This document shows positions 532 through 63,426 of a stretch of DNA of 64,000 nt, one piece after another. The notes beneath the pieces are model-generated. The model had not been told where the DNA came from. It was given only the letters and a program-made list of their open reading frames with translations, and searched no databases. Each line of letters opens with the position of its first letter. The first letter of the stretch is position 1. The position numbers and the translations under genes were made by a program. The stretch lies in NCBI RefSeq assembly GCF_054482595.1, contig NZ_CM137008.1; one strand, 5' to 3'.

Positions 532-772
532 TGTAAAGCATCCACAATAGAAGAAGGATGCCGCAGGTTTCATCAATATTACGCGATGATGAGAACCAGA
601 TGCGACGTTGGCCGGCAGGTCTTCGGGCTTGGAGGGGTATCTAAGATACTAAGAGATGATGACTTCCCACCGAATGGCAGTGTCCGCATAACGCAATCAT
701 CGCACCTTTCCTTACCGCTGCGCGTCAGCTCCAGATTCGCACTGGATTCCCTATTAACTCACAGGACCGGCA
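532..772 (-). promoter_or_regulatory. btuB 5' leader containing the cobalamin (AdoCbl) riboswitch
   Basis: Minus-strand sequence upstream of the btuB ATG reads as the btuB leader (GCCGGTCCTGTGAGTTAATAGGGAATCCAGTGCGAATCTGGAGCTGACGCGCAGCGGTAAGGAAAGGTGCGATGATTGCG...). Extent approximate. Confidence 0.8.
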
Positions 773-899
773 AGTGGATGCTACAGGTTGTAACAAGTTA
801 CTGTCCAGACGTAGCTCACAAATAGGAATTCATCAAGATCTGGACATCTGATGAGCAATCCCTACAATCGCCGCGTACTTTAATTTTTCAGGATACATC

Positions 900-3152: not shown

Positions 3153-4469
3153 TTACTGCAATTCTTTGGCCGGTTCTTTTACGTACAACAACGCCAACAT
3201 CGACAGCAACGTGCCTCCACCCAGATACCACGCCGGAGCCGTCAAACTATCCAGCAACACGATGGATTGCGTAGCGAAATATTGAGCAAAACCGCCAAAG
3301 ATTGCCACACCAATGCTATAAACCAGCGCAAAACCCAATGCCCGAATCCGTTTCGGCAACAGTTCAGAGATCAACAACATCACTGGCACACCGCCAAGCG
3401 TGGTAAAGCTGACCATCACGAAAACCACCGTCAGCAACATGCCAGGGCTTGGGTAATTCACCAACAGCCAGAATGACGGCCAGCTACAGATCAGCACCAT
3501 CACACGGGAGATTAAAATCAGCTTTTTACGCCCGACCGAATCGCACAACATCCCCACAAGCAGCGCACCCACAAACGTAATAACGCCCGCCAGTAACATC
3601 GCTGCATGAGAATAATGTTGAGGCATCGCCAGATACTTCGCCGCCCAGGTGCCGTAATAAAAGAGGGAGATATAGGTTGCGACCGTGCTACCAATAGCGA
3701 GTAAAACGCCATTAACGATAGTCGCCTTATGTTGCAGGAGCAGAGAAAACGCGCTTTCGCTGGTAGCAGCTTTTTTATTGCGCACAGGCTCAGGTACGTC
3801 ATTTTCCAGACTCAAACGCAACCAACAGCCGACAGGCGCTAATAACACGCCAATAAAAAACGGCACACGCCAGCCCCATTCAGCCATGACGGTTTCTGAA
3901 CCGGTCGCAAAGGGCAGCCATGCACTTAAACCTAAAGCGACAACACCTCCAAAAGTTGTTGCCAGGCCTTGAGTCGCCAGTGACCAACTGCTGTAAAAAC
4001 CGCGACGATTTGCCGGAGCTGACTCCACCAGTAGCGACATTGAAGCCCCAACTTCACCGCCTGCTGCAACACCCTGAATCAAACGAGCAAGTACCAGAGT
4101 TGCCGTTCCCCAATAGCCCGCCGTCGCATACGTCGGCGCAATGCCAATCATCAACGTGCCGAGGCTCATCAGGGCAATAGTGAACACCATCGCGGGTTTG
4201 CGTCCGAAACGATCGGCCCAGGCCCCGACGATAATTCCACCAAGCGGGCGCATAAAAAAACTCACGCCAAACGTTGCAAATGCCAGTAACAGCGCGACAT
4301 TGTGATCAGCGCTGGGTGGGAAGAAAAGTGTACTGATATAGACCACAAAAAAGTTGTAAACGCCAAAATCAAACAATTCGAGCGCATTGCCAAACGCCGA
4401 GGCAAAAATCACCCGCCTGCCGCTGGGCTTTTTCTTCACACTCACGGTTTCATTTACGATCGCCGTCAT
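3153..4469 (-). CDS. MFS transporter, metabolite:H+ symporter (MHS) family-like; substrate unknown
   Basis: 438 aa, many predicted TM segments, MFS signature region GxxxDRFGRK ([12 protein letters not shown]). Lies in a segment I do not recall between fabR and sthA in K-12. Confidence 0.8.
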
Positions 4470-4511
4470 TCCATGTTCCTTGCCAAAAAGTGTTGTTGTG
4501 TGTTGTTTTAT

Positions 4512-5678
4512 TTATTGCAGCCAGGCTTCTACCAGTGCGCCCCAGTAGCTGCTTGCCGGGACCAGACTTGCATCGTTGAAGTCGTAACCCGGGTTATGCA
4601 CCATGCAGGAACCTTCCCCGACATCGCCATTACCGAATAACAGGAAACCGCCTTTGGGTTGGGCTTCCAGCATGAAAGAGAAATCTTCACTGCCCATCAG
4701 AGGCTTGATGCCAAACTCGGCCAGCTCTTCACCAAACGTTTTACACGCCACCTGCCAGGCGAAGCGCGCCATCTCCTCGTCATTCACTAATACCGGTGTA
4801 CCGTTAACATGCGTAACCTCAGCCGTAGCACCAAAGCTGGCAGCCAGGGCTTGTGCCAGAGCAGGAATACGGGTCAGAAGAAGTTGTCGGGTATCGCGGC
4901 TAAGAGAGCGGACGCTGATTTTCATCTCAGCACTGTCAGGAATGACGTTAGCCGCCTCACCCGCAACAATGCTGCCGACGGTAATTACCGCCGCTTCCAG
5001 CGGATCGACATTGCGCGACACAATGCTTTGTAATGCGGTGGTGATATGTGCCGCGACCAGCACCGGATCGATGGCTTTGTGCGGGATCGCACCGTGTCCG
5101 CCACAACCACGAACTGTAATATGGAACTGATCCATTGACGCCATCAGTGCCCCTGGCTGGAAATAAAACTTACCCACCGGCAGACCGGGCATGTTATGCA
5201 TGCCGAAAATGACATCGCAGGGGAAATGATCAAAAAGCCCCTCTTTAACCATGATCTCACCGCCATTAATCATCTCTTCCGCAGGCTGGAAGATAAGACG
5301 TAACGTGCCGTTAAAACGGCGGGTTTCGGCAAAATAACGCGCGGCCCCCAGCAGTATGGTGGTATGCCCGTCATGCCCGCAGGCGTGCATTAAACCAGGA
5401 TGTTTACTGGCCCAGAGCTTGCCACTATTTTCATAAATCGGCAGCGCATCCATATCCGCCCGCAGGCCAATACTTTTCTCTCCGTCGCCCACTTTTAACG
5501 TGGCCACTATCCCCGTCGTCGCCAGTCCTTGCTCTACTTCATAGCCCCACTGACGCAGCTTTTCCGCAACCAAAGCACTGGTTTTAAATTCTTGTAATCC
5601 CAGCTCCGGGTTTTCGTGGATCTGATGGCGGATCTCACGCAGTTCTTCCTCAAACCCTCGAATATAGTGTTCGATCAT
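4512..5678 (-). CDS. M20D-family amidohydrolase (hippurate hydrolase / N-acyl-amino acid amidohydrolase-like)
   Basis: 388 aa with HACGHDGH metal-binding motif typical of peptidase M20D (AbgA/HipO/ILR1 type); co-oriented with the MFS gene, 42 bp apart. Confidence 0.8.
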   Translation of the reverse strand: MIEHYIRGFEEELREIRHQIHENPELGLQEFKTSALVAEKLRQWGYEVEQGLATTGIVATLKVGDGEKSIGLRADMDALPIYENSGKLWASKHPGLMHACGHDGHTTILLGAARYFAETRRFNGTLRLIFQPAEEMINGGEIMVKEGLFDHFPCDVIFGMHNMPGLPVGKFYFQPGALMASMDQFHITVRGCGGHGAIPHKAIDPVLVAAHITTALQSIVSRNVDPLEAAVITVGSIVAGEAANVIPDSAEMKISVRSLSRDTRQLLLTRIPALAQALAASFGATAEVTHVNGTPVLVNDEEMARFAWQVACKTFGEELAEFGIKPLMGSEDFSFMLEAQPKGGFLLFGNGDVGEGSCMVHNPGYDFNDASLVPASSYWGALVEAWLQ

Positions 5679-6007: not shown

Positions 6008-7408
6008 ATGCCACATTCCTACGATTACGATGCCATAGTAATAGGTTCCGGCCCCGGCGGCGAAGGCGCTGCAATGGGCCTGGTTAAGCAAGGTGCGCGC
6101 GTCGCAGTTATCGAGCGTTATCAAAATGTTGGCGGCGGTTGCACCCACTGGGGCACCATCCCGTCGAAAGCTCTCCGTCACGCCGTCAGCCGCATTATAG
6201 AATTCAATCAAAACCCACTATACAGCGACCATTCCCGACTGCTCCGCTCTTCTTTTGCCGATATCCTTAACCATGCCGATAACGTGATTAATCAACAAAC
6301 GCGCATGCGTCAGGGATTTTACGAACGTAATCACTGTGAAATATTGCAGGGGAACGCTCGCTTTGTTGACGAGCATACGTTGGCGCTGGATTGCCCGGAC
6401 GGCAGCGTTGAAACACTAACCGCTGAAAAATTTGTTATTGCCTGCGGCTCTCGTCCATATCATCCAACAGATGTTGATTTCACCCATCCACGCATTTACG
6501 ACAGCGACTCAATTCTCAGCATGCACCACGAACCGCGCCATGTACTTATCTATGGTGCTGGAGTGATCGGCTGTGAATATGCGTCGATCTTCCGCGGTAT
6601 GGATGTAAAAGTGGATCTGATCAACACCCGCGATCGCCTGCTGGCATTTCTCGATCAAGAGATGTCAGATTCTCTCTCCTATCACTTCTGGAACAGTGGC
6701 GTAGTGATTCGTCACAACGAAGAGTACGAGAAGATCGAAGGCTGTGACGACGGTGTAATCATGCATCTGAAGTCGGGTAAAAAACTGAAAGCCGACTGTC
6801 TGCTCTATGCCAACGGCCGCACCGGTAATACCGATTCGCTGGCATTACAGAACATTGGGCTGGAAACTGACAGTCGCGGACAGCTGAAGGTCAACAGCAT
6901 GTATCAGACCGCACAGCCGCACGTTTACGCGGTGGGCGACGTGATTGGTTATCCGAGCCTGGCATCAGCGGCCTATGACCAGGGGCGCATTGCCGCGCAG
7001 GCGCTGGTAAAAGGCGAAGCCACCGCGCATCTGATTGAAGATATCCCTACCGGCATTTACACCATCCCGGAAATCAGCTCTGTGGGCAAAACCGAACAGC
7101 AGCTGACCGCGATGAAAGTGCCATATGAAGTGGGCCGCGCCCAGTTTAAACATCTGGCACGCGCACAAATCGTTGGCATGAACGTGGGCACGCTGAAAAT
7201 TTTGTTCCATCGGGAAACGAAAGAGATTCTGGGCATTCACTGCTTTGGCGAGCGCGCTGCCGAAATTATTCATATCGGTCAGGCGATTATGGAACAGAAA
7301 GGTGGCGGCAACACTATTGAGTACTTCGTCAACACCACCTTTAACTACCCGACGATGGCGGAAGCCTATCGGGTAGCTGCGTTAAACGGTTTAAACCGCC
7401 TGTTTTAA
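6008..7408 (+). CDS. sthA: Soluble pyridine nucleotide transhydrogenase SthA (UdhA)
   Basis: 466 aa [38 protein letters not shown]...; FAD/NAD dinucleotide-binding motifs. Confidence 0.95.
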
Positions 7409-8308
7409 CACTTTATCGAAATGGCCATCCATTCTTGCGCGGATGGCCTCTGCCAGCTGCTCATAGCGGCTGCGCAGCGGTGAGCCAGGACGATAAACCA
7501 GGCCAATAGTGCGGCGAGGTTCCGGCTTAATACACGGCAAATAAACAACCCCATCGCGTTTGCGCTCCGGCGGCACAGCCAGCGCAGGCAGTAAAGTGAT
7601 CCCGCTACCTGCCGCCACCATGTTACGCAGTGTCTCCAGGCTGGTCGCGCGGAAGTGTGTATCTTCATCCGCCCCGGCTTCAAAGCAGAAACCCATTGCC
7701 TGATCGCGCAAACAGTGACCATCTTCCAGCATCAGCAGTTTTTCCCCTGCCAGGTCGGCCATCGGTACACATTCGCGGTTCGCCCACGGGTGATCTTCAT
7801 AGATAGCCAGCAACATTGGCTCATCAAACAACGGCACTTCAATGAATGCTTCGCTCTCTTTCACCAGCGCGAGGATCACGCAATCGAGTTTGCCACTGTC
7901 CAGTTGCGCCAGTAACTGGTGGGTCTGTGCTTCATGCAGATACATTTCCAGCTTTGGAAAGGTCTGGTGCAGCATCGGGATAATATGCGGTAGCAGGTAC
8001 GGTCCAACCGTGGGAATCAAACCAATATGCAGCGGTCCGGACATCGTCTCGCCCTGCTGGCTTGCCATCTCTTTAAGGACTTTCACCTCACGCAGCACGG
8101 TACGCGCCTGATCCACCAGCAGCATTCCCGCCTGGGTGAACAATACTTTACGGCTGGTCCGCTCCAGCAACATCACGCCCAGCTCATCTTCCAGCTTACG
8201 AATTTGCCCGCTAAGCGTCGGCTGGCTAACGTGGCAGGAATCTGCCGCACGCCGAAAATGGCGGTGTTCGGCCAATGCCACCAGGTACTCAAGATCACGA
8301 ATATTCAT
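7391..8308 (-). CDS. oxyR: LysR-family oxidative stress regulator OxyR
   Basis: Conserved 305 aa protein [40 protein letters not shown]...; track ORF has a 15-codon upstream extension. 3' end overlaps sthA convergently by 18 bp. Confidence 0.95.
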
Positions 8309-8403
8309 TATCCATCCTCCATTGCCACGATAGTTCGCGGCGATAGGTAGCATAGCAACGAACGATTATCCCTATCAAGCATTCTGACTGATAATTGCTC
8401 ACA
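8309..8403. promoter_or_regulatory. oxyR-oxyS divergent promoter region with OxyR binding site
   Basis: Intergenic between oxyR start and oxyS 5' end; known arrangement in E. coli. Sites not individually mapped. Confidence 0.6.
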
Positions 8404-8516
8404 GAAACGGAGCGGCACCTCTTTTAACCCTTGAAGTCACTGCCCGTTTCGAGAGTTTCTCAACTCGAATAACTAAAGCCAACGTGAACTTTTGCGGATC
8501 TCCAGGATCCGCTTTT
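8404..8516 (+). ncRNA. oxyS: OxyS small regulatory RNA
   Basis: Sequence GAAACGGAGCGGCACCTCTTTTAACCCTTGAAGTCACTGCCCGTTTCGAGAGTTTCTCAACTCGAATAACTAAAGCCAACGTGAACTTTTGCGGATCTCCAGGATCCGC followed by T-run (intrinsic terminator). Confidence 0.93.
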
Positions 8517-8574
8517 TTTTGCCATAAAAAAGCCCGGCGATAAGCCAGGCTCAAATTTATACATATAAATGTTC

Positions 8575-9948
8575 TTACCCCAACCGCGCCTGCGCAAAAG
8601 CAATTGCCTGCGCCACCTGCTGCGGTGAGACGCCGCCTTTTGCCGCACGCTTGTCGAGGCACGATTGCAGCGACAGAATCGGATAGACATCTTCGCCAAT
8701 CACCTGGCTGAATTTCTGTAACTCAGTCAGCGGCAACTCTTCCAGCGGTTTGCCCTGACGAATAGCTTCCACCACCGCTTCACCCACGATATGGTGCGCC
8801 TCGCGGAACGGCACGCCTTTCGCCACCAGGTAATCCGCCAGTTCAGTGGCGTTCGCATACCCCTGCTGCGCCGCTTCCTGGCAACGCGGACGTTTCACCT
8901 GAATGCCGTCCAGCACCAGCGCCGCCATATGCAGGCAGTCCAGCCAGGTGTCGAGCGCGTCGAACAGGCCTTCTTTGTCTTCCTGCATATCTTTGTTGTA
9001 AGCCAGCGGCAAACCTTTCAGCGTCATCATCATGCCGGTTAACGCGCCCTGCACCCGACCGCATTTACCGCGAATCAGCTCCAGCGCATCCGGGTTTTTC
9101 TTCTGCGGCATTAATGATGAACCGGAAGTCACGCGGTCAGAAAGCTCGACAAACCCTGCTTCGCCGGTGTTAAAGAAGATCAGATCTTCAGCAAAACGCG
9201 ACAGATGCACCATGCCGATAGCGGCAGCAGAAAGCAGTTCCAGCACGTGGTCGCGGTCAGAAACGCTGTCGAGACTGTTACGGGTCGCCGAAGCAAAGCC
9301 CAGCCAGCCAGCTAACTGTTCACGGTCGATTTCATAGGCCGTTCCCGCCAGCGCGCCACAGCCTAACGGGCTGACATCCAGACGCTTAAGCGCATCCTGC
9401 AAGCGGCTTTCATCACGCGCCAGCATCTCAACATAGGCCAGACACCAGTGCGCGAATGTCACCGGCTGGGCACGTTGCAGGTGGGTATAGCCCGGCATCA
9501 CCGCGTCCTGATTATTCTGCGCGGTTTCTACCAGCGCCGATTGCAACTGGCGGTTAGCCGTCAGCAACTCGCCAACGGTATCCTTGCACCACAGTTTCAG
9601 GTCAGTCGCGACCTGGTCATTACGGCTACGCCCGGTATGCAGCTTTTTGCCTAACTGCCCCACTTTGTCGATCAGTTTCCCTTCCACCCAGCTATGGATA
9701 TCTTCGGCGTCGCTTTCAAGGATTTGTTGTGGCCTGGCGCGAACATCTTCCAGCAGCACGTTCAGCGCCTCTTCCAGTTGCGCCTGTTCTTCTGCGGTTA
9801 ACACGCCTACCGTTACCAGGGCTTTGGACCAGGCCACAGAGCCAACAATATCCTGCTCCGCCAGACGGTAATCAAAGCGCAGTGAGTCGTTAAATTGTTT
9901 GAACCGTTGATCTGCTGCCTGGGTAAAACGCCCGCCCCAAAGTGCCAT
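8575..9948 (-). CDS. argH: Argininosuccinate lyase ArgH
   Basis: 457 aa [37 protein letters not shown]... Confidence 0.95.
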
Positions 9949-32770: not shown

Positions 32771-33044
32771 TTATAATTGAATTAATCCACGGATGCGATA
32801 GTTGAGATCTTACATATTGTTGGTTAAAGAGATGTAGATCAAATTGATCGTAATTAAGCTTTTTTGATTATGTCCGAATTCGGACAAATGCTTTATAAAA
32901 AAGGGTTTTAGCTTCATATCCTTCAAGTAATGAGGGAGAAAACAAGGCTGATAACCTTATTTTCCCGCCCTCATTTCGAGGCAGCATTTTGTGCTCTGTT
33001 TAAAATTTGTGATCACTGTGTGATTTTCACAAAAGCCACACTAT

Positions 33045-51663: not shown

Positions 51664-52350
51664 ATGGACGCATTCATGCAGAATATTATTCTTTTATTTA
51701 TATATTTATTACTTATAGCCGTTAACCATTTCCGCTACAAATTTCTTTTATCTGGCAACGCGGGTGAAATGATTTTATATTTTGCTAACGTATTTTTTAA
51801 CCCACTTGCCTTATCATTTATTATCGCCACAATCATCTGTATAACGATAAAAAAAAGAAGCAGCCGCAGCTTTATTCGCGGCACTTGTTGGTTAATGGGA
51901 TTATTTCTTATCTATAGCAGCTATACGGTGTGGGAACGACACAGCATATGGGATTATACTTTCCCGGAGCCAGGTATCACCGTCACGGTTCCGAGCAAAC
52001 AGTGGGTTGCCAATATAGTAAAACAAGGACCAACCCTGGTGACCCGGGATGCCCATGCTATTTTAGCTATTGTTGCCTTCTCACAAAATGAACTCGGTGT
52101 GCATTCAATCGAGGAACTTACCGCGATTCAAAACGGAACTGCAGAAATGCATGTTTGTGATGTTCAGGGATTTGCCTGCGCTTATCAGGAAGGAGTGCAA
52201 ACAATGAGTGATGGCAAAGTAAGACATGCTATTTTCATGACTCTACTGGATAACACTAATTTGATACAACTGGTCGCAGCTATCGACCCAGATTATTTGG
52301 ACGAATATCAAGAAGAAGTAATGAAAATGATGCTTTCTGCTCGTCAATGA
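51664..52350 (+). CDS. Hypothetical membrane-anchored protein, paralog A (start may be internal Met at 51676)
   Basis: 228 aa ORF, AT-rich, 2-3 predicted N-terminal TM helices then ~150 aa domain; about 30% identical to the adjacent downstream ORF with shared motifs (SFxRGxCW, ISVTVP, HxC...F(A/T)CxYQ, MLSA). Confidence 0.6.
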   Translation: MDAFMQNIILLFIYLLLIAVNHFRYKFLLSGNAGEMILYFANVFFNPLALSFIIATIICITIKKRSSRSFIRGTCWLMGLFLIYSSYTVWERHSIWDYTFPEPGITVTVPSKQWVANIVKQGPTLVTRDAHAILAIVAFSQNELGVHSIEELTAIQNGTAEMHVCDVQGFACAYQEGVQTMSDGKVRHAIFMTLLDNTNLIQLVAAIDPDYLDEYQEEVMKMMLSARQ

Positions 52351-52382: not shown

Positions 52383-53099
52383 ATGAGATACGTTATCTTA
52401 TTAATACTATGGATAATAACTGTTTTTCTTAGTCATCTTCAGCACAGTAACTTGCTTACTGGAGATCCTGGGATGGTTGGCGAGTATATCGGTTCAGTAC
52501 TTCTTGGGCCGTTATTACTTCCCGTGCTTGTGTCAGGTATTCTGTGCACATTCACTAAAAAAACGCGTAACTTCGCCAGTTTTACTCGCGGGTGCTGTTG
52601 GGTATTGGGAGTCCTGCTTTTATCCAACGTCGGCAATACGTTTCGTCTGTTCACCCCGTGGCACTATACGTTTGAGAAGGCAGCTATTTCCGTGACTGTC
52701 CCAAACCGACACTGGAATACGGTTTCTATTAGTACTGATAAAACCATTGATATAAGAAGTGAAGATAATAGCGTCTTTATTTCTGCTTTCCGCCTGCCCG
52801 CAGGACGTAGCGCCGATGACTCGCTGGAAGAGTTAAAGAAGATGCAGCGAGACAATCTCAAGGATCAATACAATGAAGAAACCTTCCAGTTTCATGATTG
52901 TAATGCCAAACATTTCACCTGTAAGTATCAGGATGTGTTGATAAATTTTGATGGTCAGCAGAAAAGAACCATCAGTGTTTATCTTGAAGACACCCCCAGG
53001 GCTGTGGGGATCATTGCATTAATGGAGCCAGATACGGCAGATAAATATCGCCAACAGGCGATGGAGATTATGTTGTCTGCTAAAAATACAGTGAAGTAA
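52383..53099 (+). CDS. Hypothetical membrane-anchored protein, paralog B
   Basis: 238 aa ORF MRYVILLILWIITVFLSHLQ...; same architecture and conserved motifs as paralog A. Confidence 0.6.
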   Translation: MRYVILLILWIITVFLSHLQHSNLLTGDPGMVGEYIGSVLLGPLLLPVLVSGILCTFTKKTRNFASFTRGCCWVLGVLLLSNVGNTFRLFTPWHYTFEKAAISVTVPNRHWNTVSISTDKTIDIRSEDNSVFISAFRLPAGRSADDSLEELKKMQRDNLKDQYNEETFQFHDCNAKHFTCKYQDVLINFDGQQKRTISVYLEDTPRAVGIIALMEPDTADKYRQQAMEIMLSAKNTVK

Positions 53100-63325: not shown

Positions 63326-63426
63326 GCCATATGCGGCGCGAACGCCTTATCCGGCCTACAAAAGTTTGCAAATTCAATAAATTGCAGAATTCATGTAGGC
63401 CTGATAAGCGAAGCGCATCAGGCATT
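63326..63426. repeat. REP palindromic repeats
   Basis: gccatatgcggcgcgaacgccttatccggcctaca ... gtaggcctgataagcgaagcgcatcaggcatt. Confidence 0.7.

Follow-up and report, generated by a model that had tools for sequence, protein, structure and literature searches.

The window analysed here, by which we mean the whole 64,000-nucleotide stretch taken from contig NZ_CM137008.1 (assembly GCF_054482595.1), contains at positions 8309-8520 what is almost certainly the canonical E. coli oxyR-oxyS divergent control unit. The window aligns to E. coli strain XH990 (NZ_CP019359) with 17580/17580 and 46788/46790 identities, and relative to the K-12 map it is reverse-complemented. OxyS was one of the earliest bacterial small RNAs to be described and is among the most thoroughly studied; as far as sequence can tell, the locus is already known and ordinary, with both OxyS and OxyR intact. 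The features of the locus are listed in Table 1.

Table 1. Features of the oxyR-oxyS-argH locus, in window coordinates
Feature	Position	Strand	Basis
oxyR CDS, 305 codons + stop; LysR-type peroxide sensor with Cys199 and Cys208	7391-8308	-	ORF; NF008361; K-12 alignment
95-bp shared control region	8309-8403		Sequence; 5 substitutions vs K-12; 54/95 columns invariant in 56 Enterobacteriaceae sequences
OxyR operator ATAG-n11-CGAT-n7-ATAG-n11-CGAT, -74 to -38 from OxyS +1	8330-8366		Motif score 16/20; elements invariant in 56 sequences
Putative oxyR promoter: -35 TTGATA (8378-8373), 18-nt spacer, TG-extended -10 TATGCT (8354-8349)	8349-8378	-	Consensus scan
Invariant block AACGATTATCCCTATCAA, reaching from the final operator element to the -35 areas of the two promoters; includes a further CTAT element	8361-8378		All columns invariant in 56 sequences
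Probable oxyS -10 hexamer GATAAT, 8 nt before +1	8390-8395	+	Sequence; ATAAT invariant in 56 sequences
OxyS small RNA: 110-nt body (8404-8513), then U-tail	8404-8520	+	RF00035; K-12 identity; fold
Stem-loop 1 (nt 1-47); loop 8422-8432 is one of two fhlA-pairing sites (PMC10578473)	8404-8450	+	Rfam structure line; MFE fold; 15/15 pairs with compensatory changes
Stem-loop 2 (nt 50-63)	8453-8466	+	Rfam structure line; MFE fold; 3/4 pairs with compensatory changes
A/U-rich linker (nt 64-90): Hfq-binding region; nusG seed C76/C77 (8479/8480); weak SL4 hairpin, nt 72-89	8467-8493	+	K-12 identity; roles from PMC10578473 and PMC5793797
Stem-loop 3, the intrinsic terminator (stem 8494-8512) + T8; loop 8501-8505 is the fhlA RBS-pairing site	8494-8520	+	Terminator scan; 94.5% of cells paired; 5/7 pairs with compensatory changes
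argH intrinsic terminator, convergent with the OxyS terminator	8530-8552	-	Terminator scan: 9 pairs, then T-run
argH (argininosuccinate lyase), convergent downstream neighbour	8575-9948	-	ORF; NCBIfam TIGR00838, 714.7 bits

The initial annotation had singled out the interval 8309-8516 as a divergent oxyR-oxyS unit with an intact OxyS, and every sequence-level test supported that reading, with no sequence feature contradicting it. The interval consists of the 95-bp oxyR-oxyS spacer together with OxyS. oxyR is read from the minus strand with its ATG at 8308-8306, which makes 8309 the base immediately upstream of the gene; the other end, 8516, falls within the terminator T-run of OxyS. From the oxyR start codon to the OxyS +1 is 95 bp, and the two genes lie on opposite strands (oxyR minus, OxyS plus) with their 5′ ends facing, which is the head-to-head arrangement that had been proposed. 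The letters at the boundary (8306-8309) read ...cat|tatccatcctcc..., with the minus-strand ATG of the 305-codon ORF at 8308. The listed oxyR ORF begins at an upstream ATG at 8353, but this is an artefact of the listing; the gene actually starts at the ATG inside this frame, at 8308.

The OxyR protein matches the NCBIfam equivalog NF008361 over residues 1-305 of 305 (632.9 bits, cut-off 329) and is identical to K-12 OxyR at 305/305 positions. Cys199 and Cys208, whose redox-active role is described in PMC2225504, are both seen in the alignment. On the other side of OxyS, the possibility that the OxyS terminator doubles as the argH terminator was rejected, because the terminator scan found argH to have its own terminator at 8552-8530.

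The RNA itself was identified by a scan of the whole window with Rfam 15 at gathering thresholds, which placed OxyS (RF00035) at 8404-8513 on the plus strand (E 4.6e-29). The match covers model positions 1-110 of 110 and is not truncated, and its score of 139.5 bits is well above the gathering value of 75, so that the Infernal result agrees with the earlier identification. With its U-tail, OxyS is identical at 117/117 positions to oxyS of K-12 MG1655 (b4458, NC_000913 4158278-4158394), and the stretch from the end of OxyS to the argH stop codon is also identical to K-12. Because the RNA is identical to that of K-12, the Hfq motifs A65-A74 and U87-U90 and the target-pairing residues (the loops of stem-loops 1 and 3, and C76/C77) are all present. 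The minimum free energy fold, at -32.9 kcal/mol (z = -2.84 relative to shuffled sequences), reproduces stem-loops 1-3, and the terminator said to be part of the conserved RNA is found as a stem of 8 pairs at 8494-8512 followed by T8. Among complete E. coli genomes, the oxyS region is present in 5425 of 5426, and the first 97 nt of OxyS are identical in 4824 of 5425. The megablast search of these genomes also returned two plasmid-borne copies of the oxyS region, and one genome of the 5426 gave no match.

To locate the operator in the shared control region, all 37-nt words on either strand of the window were scored for their match to the OxyR consensus ATAGntnnnanCTAT-n7-ATAGntnnnanCTAT (ATAGntnnnanCTATn7ATAGntnnnanCTAT), which has 20 specified positions. 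The best site in the 64-kb window is 8330-8366, with 16/20, and the next best site scores 15. Two candidates for the oxyR promoter were seen on the minus strand, and that in Table 1 is probably the one used. Its putative -10 lies inside the OxyR operator, an arrangement that allows autorepression; OxyR autorepression is known, and an operator-internal oxyR -10 fits with it. For oxyS, the promoter scan found no plus-strand sigma-70 consensus pair, and the missing good -35 would be as expected of an activator-dependent promoter. When the control region was aligned among 56 sequences (the window, K-12 and 54 other Enterobacteriaceae), the 54 invariant columns included all four operator elements, the ATAAT of the oxyS -10 and the whole of the block AACGATTATCCCTATCAA. 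The OxyR motif has been described as four ATAG elements at intervals of about 10 bp, and OxyR as having two binding modes (PMC3953959). The invariant block is plausibly an extended contact of reduced OxyR.

The conservation of the unit was examined in contigs representing one genome per species, which were scanned with the 18-nt linker CTAAAGCCAACGTGAACT. This gave 64 loci, all of them in Enterobacteriaceae; since linker nt 70-87 served as the query, their invariance across these species is built in. In tblastn searches of the 64 loci with the OxyR and ArgH of the window, oxyR was on the opposite strand from OxyS wherever the flank was present, and argH was convergent and downstream of oxyS wherever the fetched flank reached it. 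The oxyR start lies 83-107 nt upstream of the OxyS +1 in nearly all loci, the exceptions being one start at -148 and one partial match. Four loci, from E. whittamii, Escherichia sp. E1V33, C. braakii and one C. amalonaticus (L056, L022, L038 and L065), carry 2.5-3 kb of additional DNA between oxyS and argH; the insert of L056 (4380-7510) encodes an MFS transporter and an enzyme of the enolase superfamily (MR_MLE).

A covariance model was built from four Escherichia copies and the Rfam structure line, and homologues were aligned to it by Infernal. The model found exactly one OxyS match in each of 65 sources (32.6-145 bits, E <= 4e-6). Among 60 distinct homologues, 87.0% of cells were in standard pairs, compared with 31-42% when the 3′ partners were slid by 1-3 columns, and compensatory changes on both sides were seen in 23 of 26 pairs, although these pair counts are biased towards the model because the alignment was fitted to its structure. 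In 500 column shuffles the observed measures were never reached. A MAFFT alignment of 62 OxyS regions analysed with RNAalifold recovered only three pairs, all of the terminator; this weak recovery arises because the length of stem-loop 1 varies between genera and MAFFT misplaces it.

The OxyS loci of Salmonella, Citrobacter, Enterobacter, Klebsiella/Raoultella and other genera share with the window copy the synteny, operator, -10, linker and terminator, and their fold is kept by compensatory changes. They differ from it in the length and sequence of stem-loop 1, where most of the change across genera is found. Model matches range from 93 nt (Klebsiella/Raoultella-type) to 119 nt, with an outlier of 169 nt (L035). 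Stem-loop 1 is much shorter in the Klebsiella/Raoultella-type loci. Across genera, the median identity to the window is higher for the control region (85%) than for the OxyS RNA (76%, with a minimum of 45%).

These comparisons bear on two other readings of the RNA. One is that no RNA gene is expressed here and that the OxyS-like sequence survives as a silent relic or belongs to the distal end of the argH terminator region; in XH990 the stretch indeed carries no PGAP annotation. We consider this extremely improbable, given that the sequence is 100% identical to an experimentally studied K-12 gene, including the -10, the +1 and the terminator, that argH has a separate terminator, that the stems are kept by compensatory changes across genera, and that the operator and the -10 are invariant across them. 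There is just as little to be said for a dual-function transcript that also encodes a small peptide. Short frames starting with TTG or GTG can be drawn in OxyS, but none is preceded by a Shine-Dalgarno sequence, and a small ORF inside the RNA was rejected because 8404-8520 contains no ATG. Furthermore, the 5′ half of OxyS varies between genera by indels and by stem-preserving substitutions, as a structured RNA would and a reading frame would not.

A different question is raised by the control region. The description of the unit as fully conserved holds for the RNA, which is unchanged from K-12, but not for the promoter, in which five bases are changed relative to K-12: 8323 T/C, 8337 G/A, 8338 C/T, 8351 C/A and 8359 C/T (window/K-12). 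The change at 8351 lies in the putative oxyR -10 and converts TATTCT (K-12) to TATGCT. It is conceivable that this allele is a cis-regulatory polymorphism, changing OxyR autorepression or OxyS induction relative to K-12. In favour of this, the five substitutions fall within 95 bp while the RNA and the OxyR protein are unchanged, and the exact 95-bp sequence is a minority allele: of 5422 complete E. coli genomes, 728 (about 13%) have it. Some 3991 carry a version of 90-95% identity, and every sampled match of this class is 94.7% identical, the same value as K-12. Moreover, C at 8338 is rare, occurring in 3 of the 54 other species. On the other hand, four of the five substitutions are within the operator and all four are at unspecified (N) positions of the motif. 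All five positions fall in variable columns of the alignment; the four in the operator vary between species, 8338 the least. The window agrees with 45 of the 54 other species at 8351 and with 46 of them at 8359, which makes K-12 the deviant sequence at these two positions. G at 8337 is found in 9 of the 54 and T at 8323 in 4, and Pseudocitrobacter also has GC at 8337-8338, a pair that E. albertii shares in part. A regulatory effect of the allele thus seems unlikely, if less so than either of the alternatives for the RNA, and the pattern of substitutions suggests neutral variation. Nevertheless, since the control region has five differences, including that in the putative oxyR -10, the quantitative behaviour of the unit could differ from that of K-12.

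Compared with known systems, the unit is closest to oxyS of K-12 (b4458, RF00035), with which it shares the +1, the three stem-loops, the linker, the terminator, the position between oxyR and argH and the 95-bp distance to the oxyR start; the RNA is without difference, whereas the promoter/operator differs at the five bases given above. A second OxyR operator, the experimentally known one of katG, is located in the same window at 32776-32812. It has the same four-element ATAG motif and matches it at 14/20 positions, compared with 16/20 for oxyRS. Unlike the katG site, the oxyRS site serves two divergent promoters (oxyR repressed, oxyS activated) and is followed by the extra invariant block. 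The two OxyR-regulon promoters are 24 kb apart in the window. The unit also resembles gcvA-gcvB, in which an activator of the LysR family is divergent from a trans-acting, Hfq-dependent sRNA under its own control. However, the regulator, the RNA family and the targets of gcvA-gcvB are different, and its signal is glycine rather than peroxide.

OxyS had also been called the only sRNA identifiable in the window. The curated annotation of K-12 agrees, since oxyS is the sole ncRNA gene in the equivalent stretch from pfkA to btuB, but the Rfam scan adds a match to the ES036/CssrF sRNA family at 63361-63402 (+), in the pfkA-sbp spacer (48.2 bits, gathering 37.6). This match has no annotation in the K-12 RefSeq record, and a literature search on ES036/CssrF found nothing relevant. 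CpxQ, a known sRNA from this part of the chromosome, was rejected as a further sRNA of the window, because the window ends within pfkA, short of cpxP, and CpxQ lies just beyond its end. Three cis-regulatory RNAs also score above the Rfam thresholds, namely the btuB cobalamin riboswitch at 597-786 (-), the L31 (rpmE) leader at 43455-43507 (-) and a promoter element/hairpin of hslVU (ClpQY) at 48119-48176 (+). In the RefSeq/PGAP annotation of XH990 (NZ_CP019359) there is no feature for oxyS at the equivalent of 8404-8520, so that the annotated region looks like empty intergenic DNA, and the megablast tables give "none" under annotated features for the sRNA region.

In contrast to the K-12 chromosome, the surroundings of the unit are of the XH990 type, with accessory inserts elsewhere in the window. 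Between fabR and sthA, about 2.6 kb is inserted relative to K-12 (3153-5678, minus strand); it encodes an M20 aminoacylase as well as a transporter of the MFS type that is annotated as a citrate-proton symporter. From about 39286 to 43076, between yiiX and rpmE, there are decayed mobile elements, all absent from K-12: a frameshifted IS1, fragments of an RHS core and of dsORF, an ISEc1 copy that contains an internal stop, and a fragment of DUF6531. Two ORFs between rraA and zapB are likewise absent from K-12, at 51676-52347 (+; 224 aa) and 52473-53096 (+; 208 aa). Their GC content is 34-47%, compared with 50-57% in the flanks; PGAP annotates them as hypothetical, and they had no match in Pfam, NCBIfam or PADLOC. 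Together they form an orphan islet of two genes.

The literature on the identical K-12 sequence suggests how the unit would work. OxyR, a tetramer of LysR type made from the minus strand at 8308, would bind the four-ATAG operator, which would overlap the oxyR -10 and abut the weak oxyS -35. Upon oxidation of Cys199 and Cys208 by H2O2, OxyR would shift its DNA contacts and activate the oxyS promoter (-10 at 8390-8395, +1 at 8404), with its own promoter still repressed. The product would be an Hfq-binding OxyS RNA of about 110 nt, ending at the intrinsic terminator at 8494-8520. In the published work, OxyS is induced by OxyR after H2O2 and is a pleiotropic Hfq-binding regulator; Hfq contacts A65-A74 and U87-U90, and a fourth, weak hairpin can arise from nt 72-89 (PMC10578473).

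The RNA would then act in trans by short base-pairing. Its stem-loop 1 and stem-loop 3 loops would pair with fhlA mRNA, whose repression has been described as a two-site interaction involving these loops (PMC10578473). The linker and hairpin 2 would pair with nusG mRNA; the middle hairpin and the linker, including C76/C77, are reported to pair with two sites in that mRNA, and lower NusG leads to expression of KilR, a transient arrest of division and the possibility of DNA repair (PMC5793797). Further targets are reported, for example in iscR-linked Fe-S control, PMC11572966 describing an input of OxyS into Fe-S cluster control via iscR. The targets named here are all located outside the window. 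The net effect would be less peroxide-generating metabolism, with DNA repair allowed. Peroxide induction, Hfq binding and target repression are thus probable properties of this copy, by extension from K-12.

Finally, we note what the locus may offer. The copy is identical to the reference and has little value apart from correct annotation. If the control-region allele did alter regulation, the lineages that carry it would have a different set-point of the peroxide response. Within E. coli the promoter/operator is allelic and the RNA is not, and the unit could therefore serve as a cheap natural experiment on how much variation the OxyR operator tolerates.
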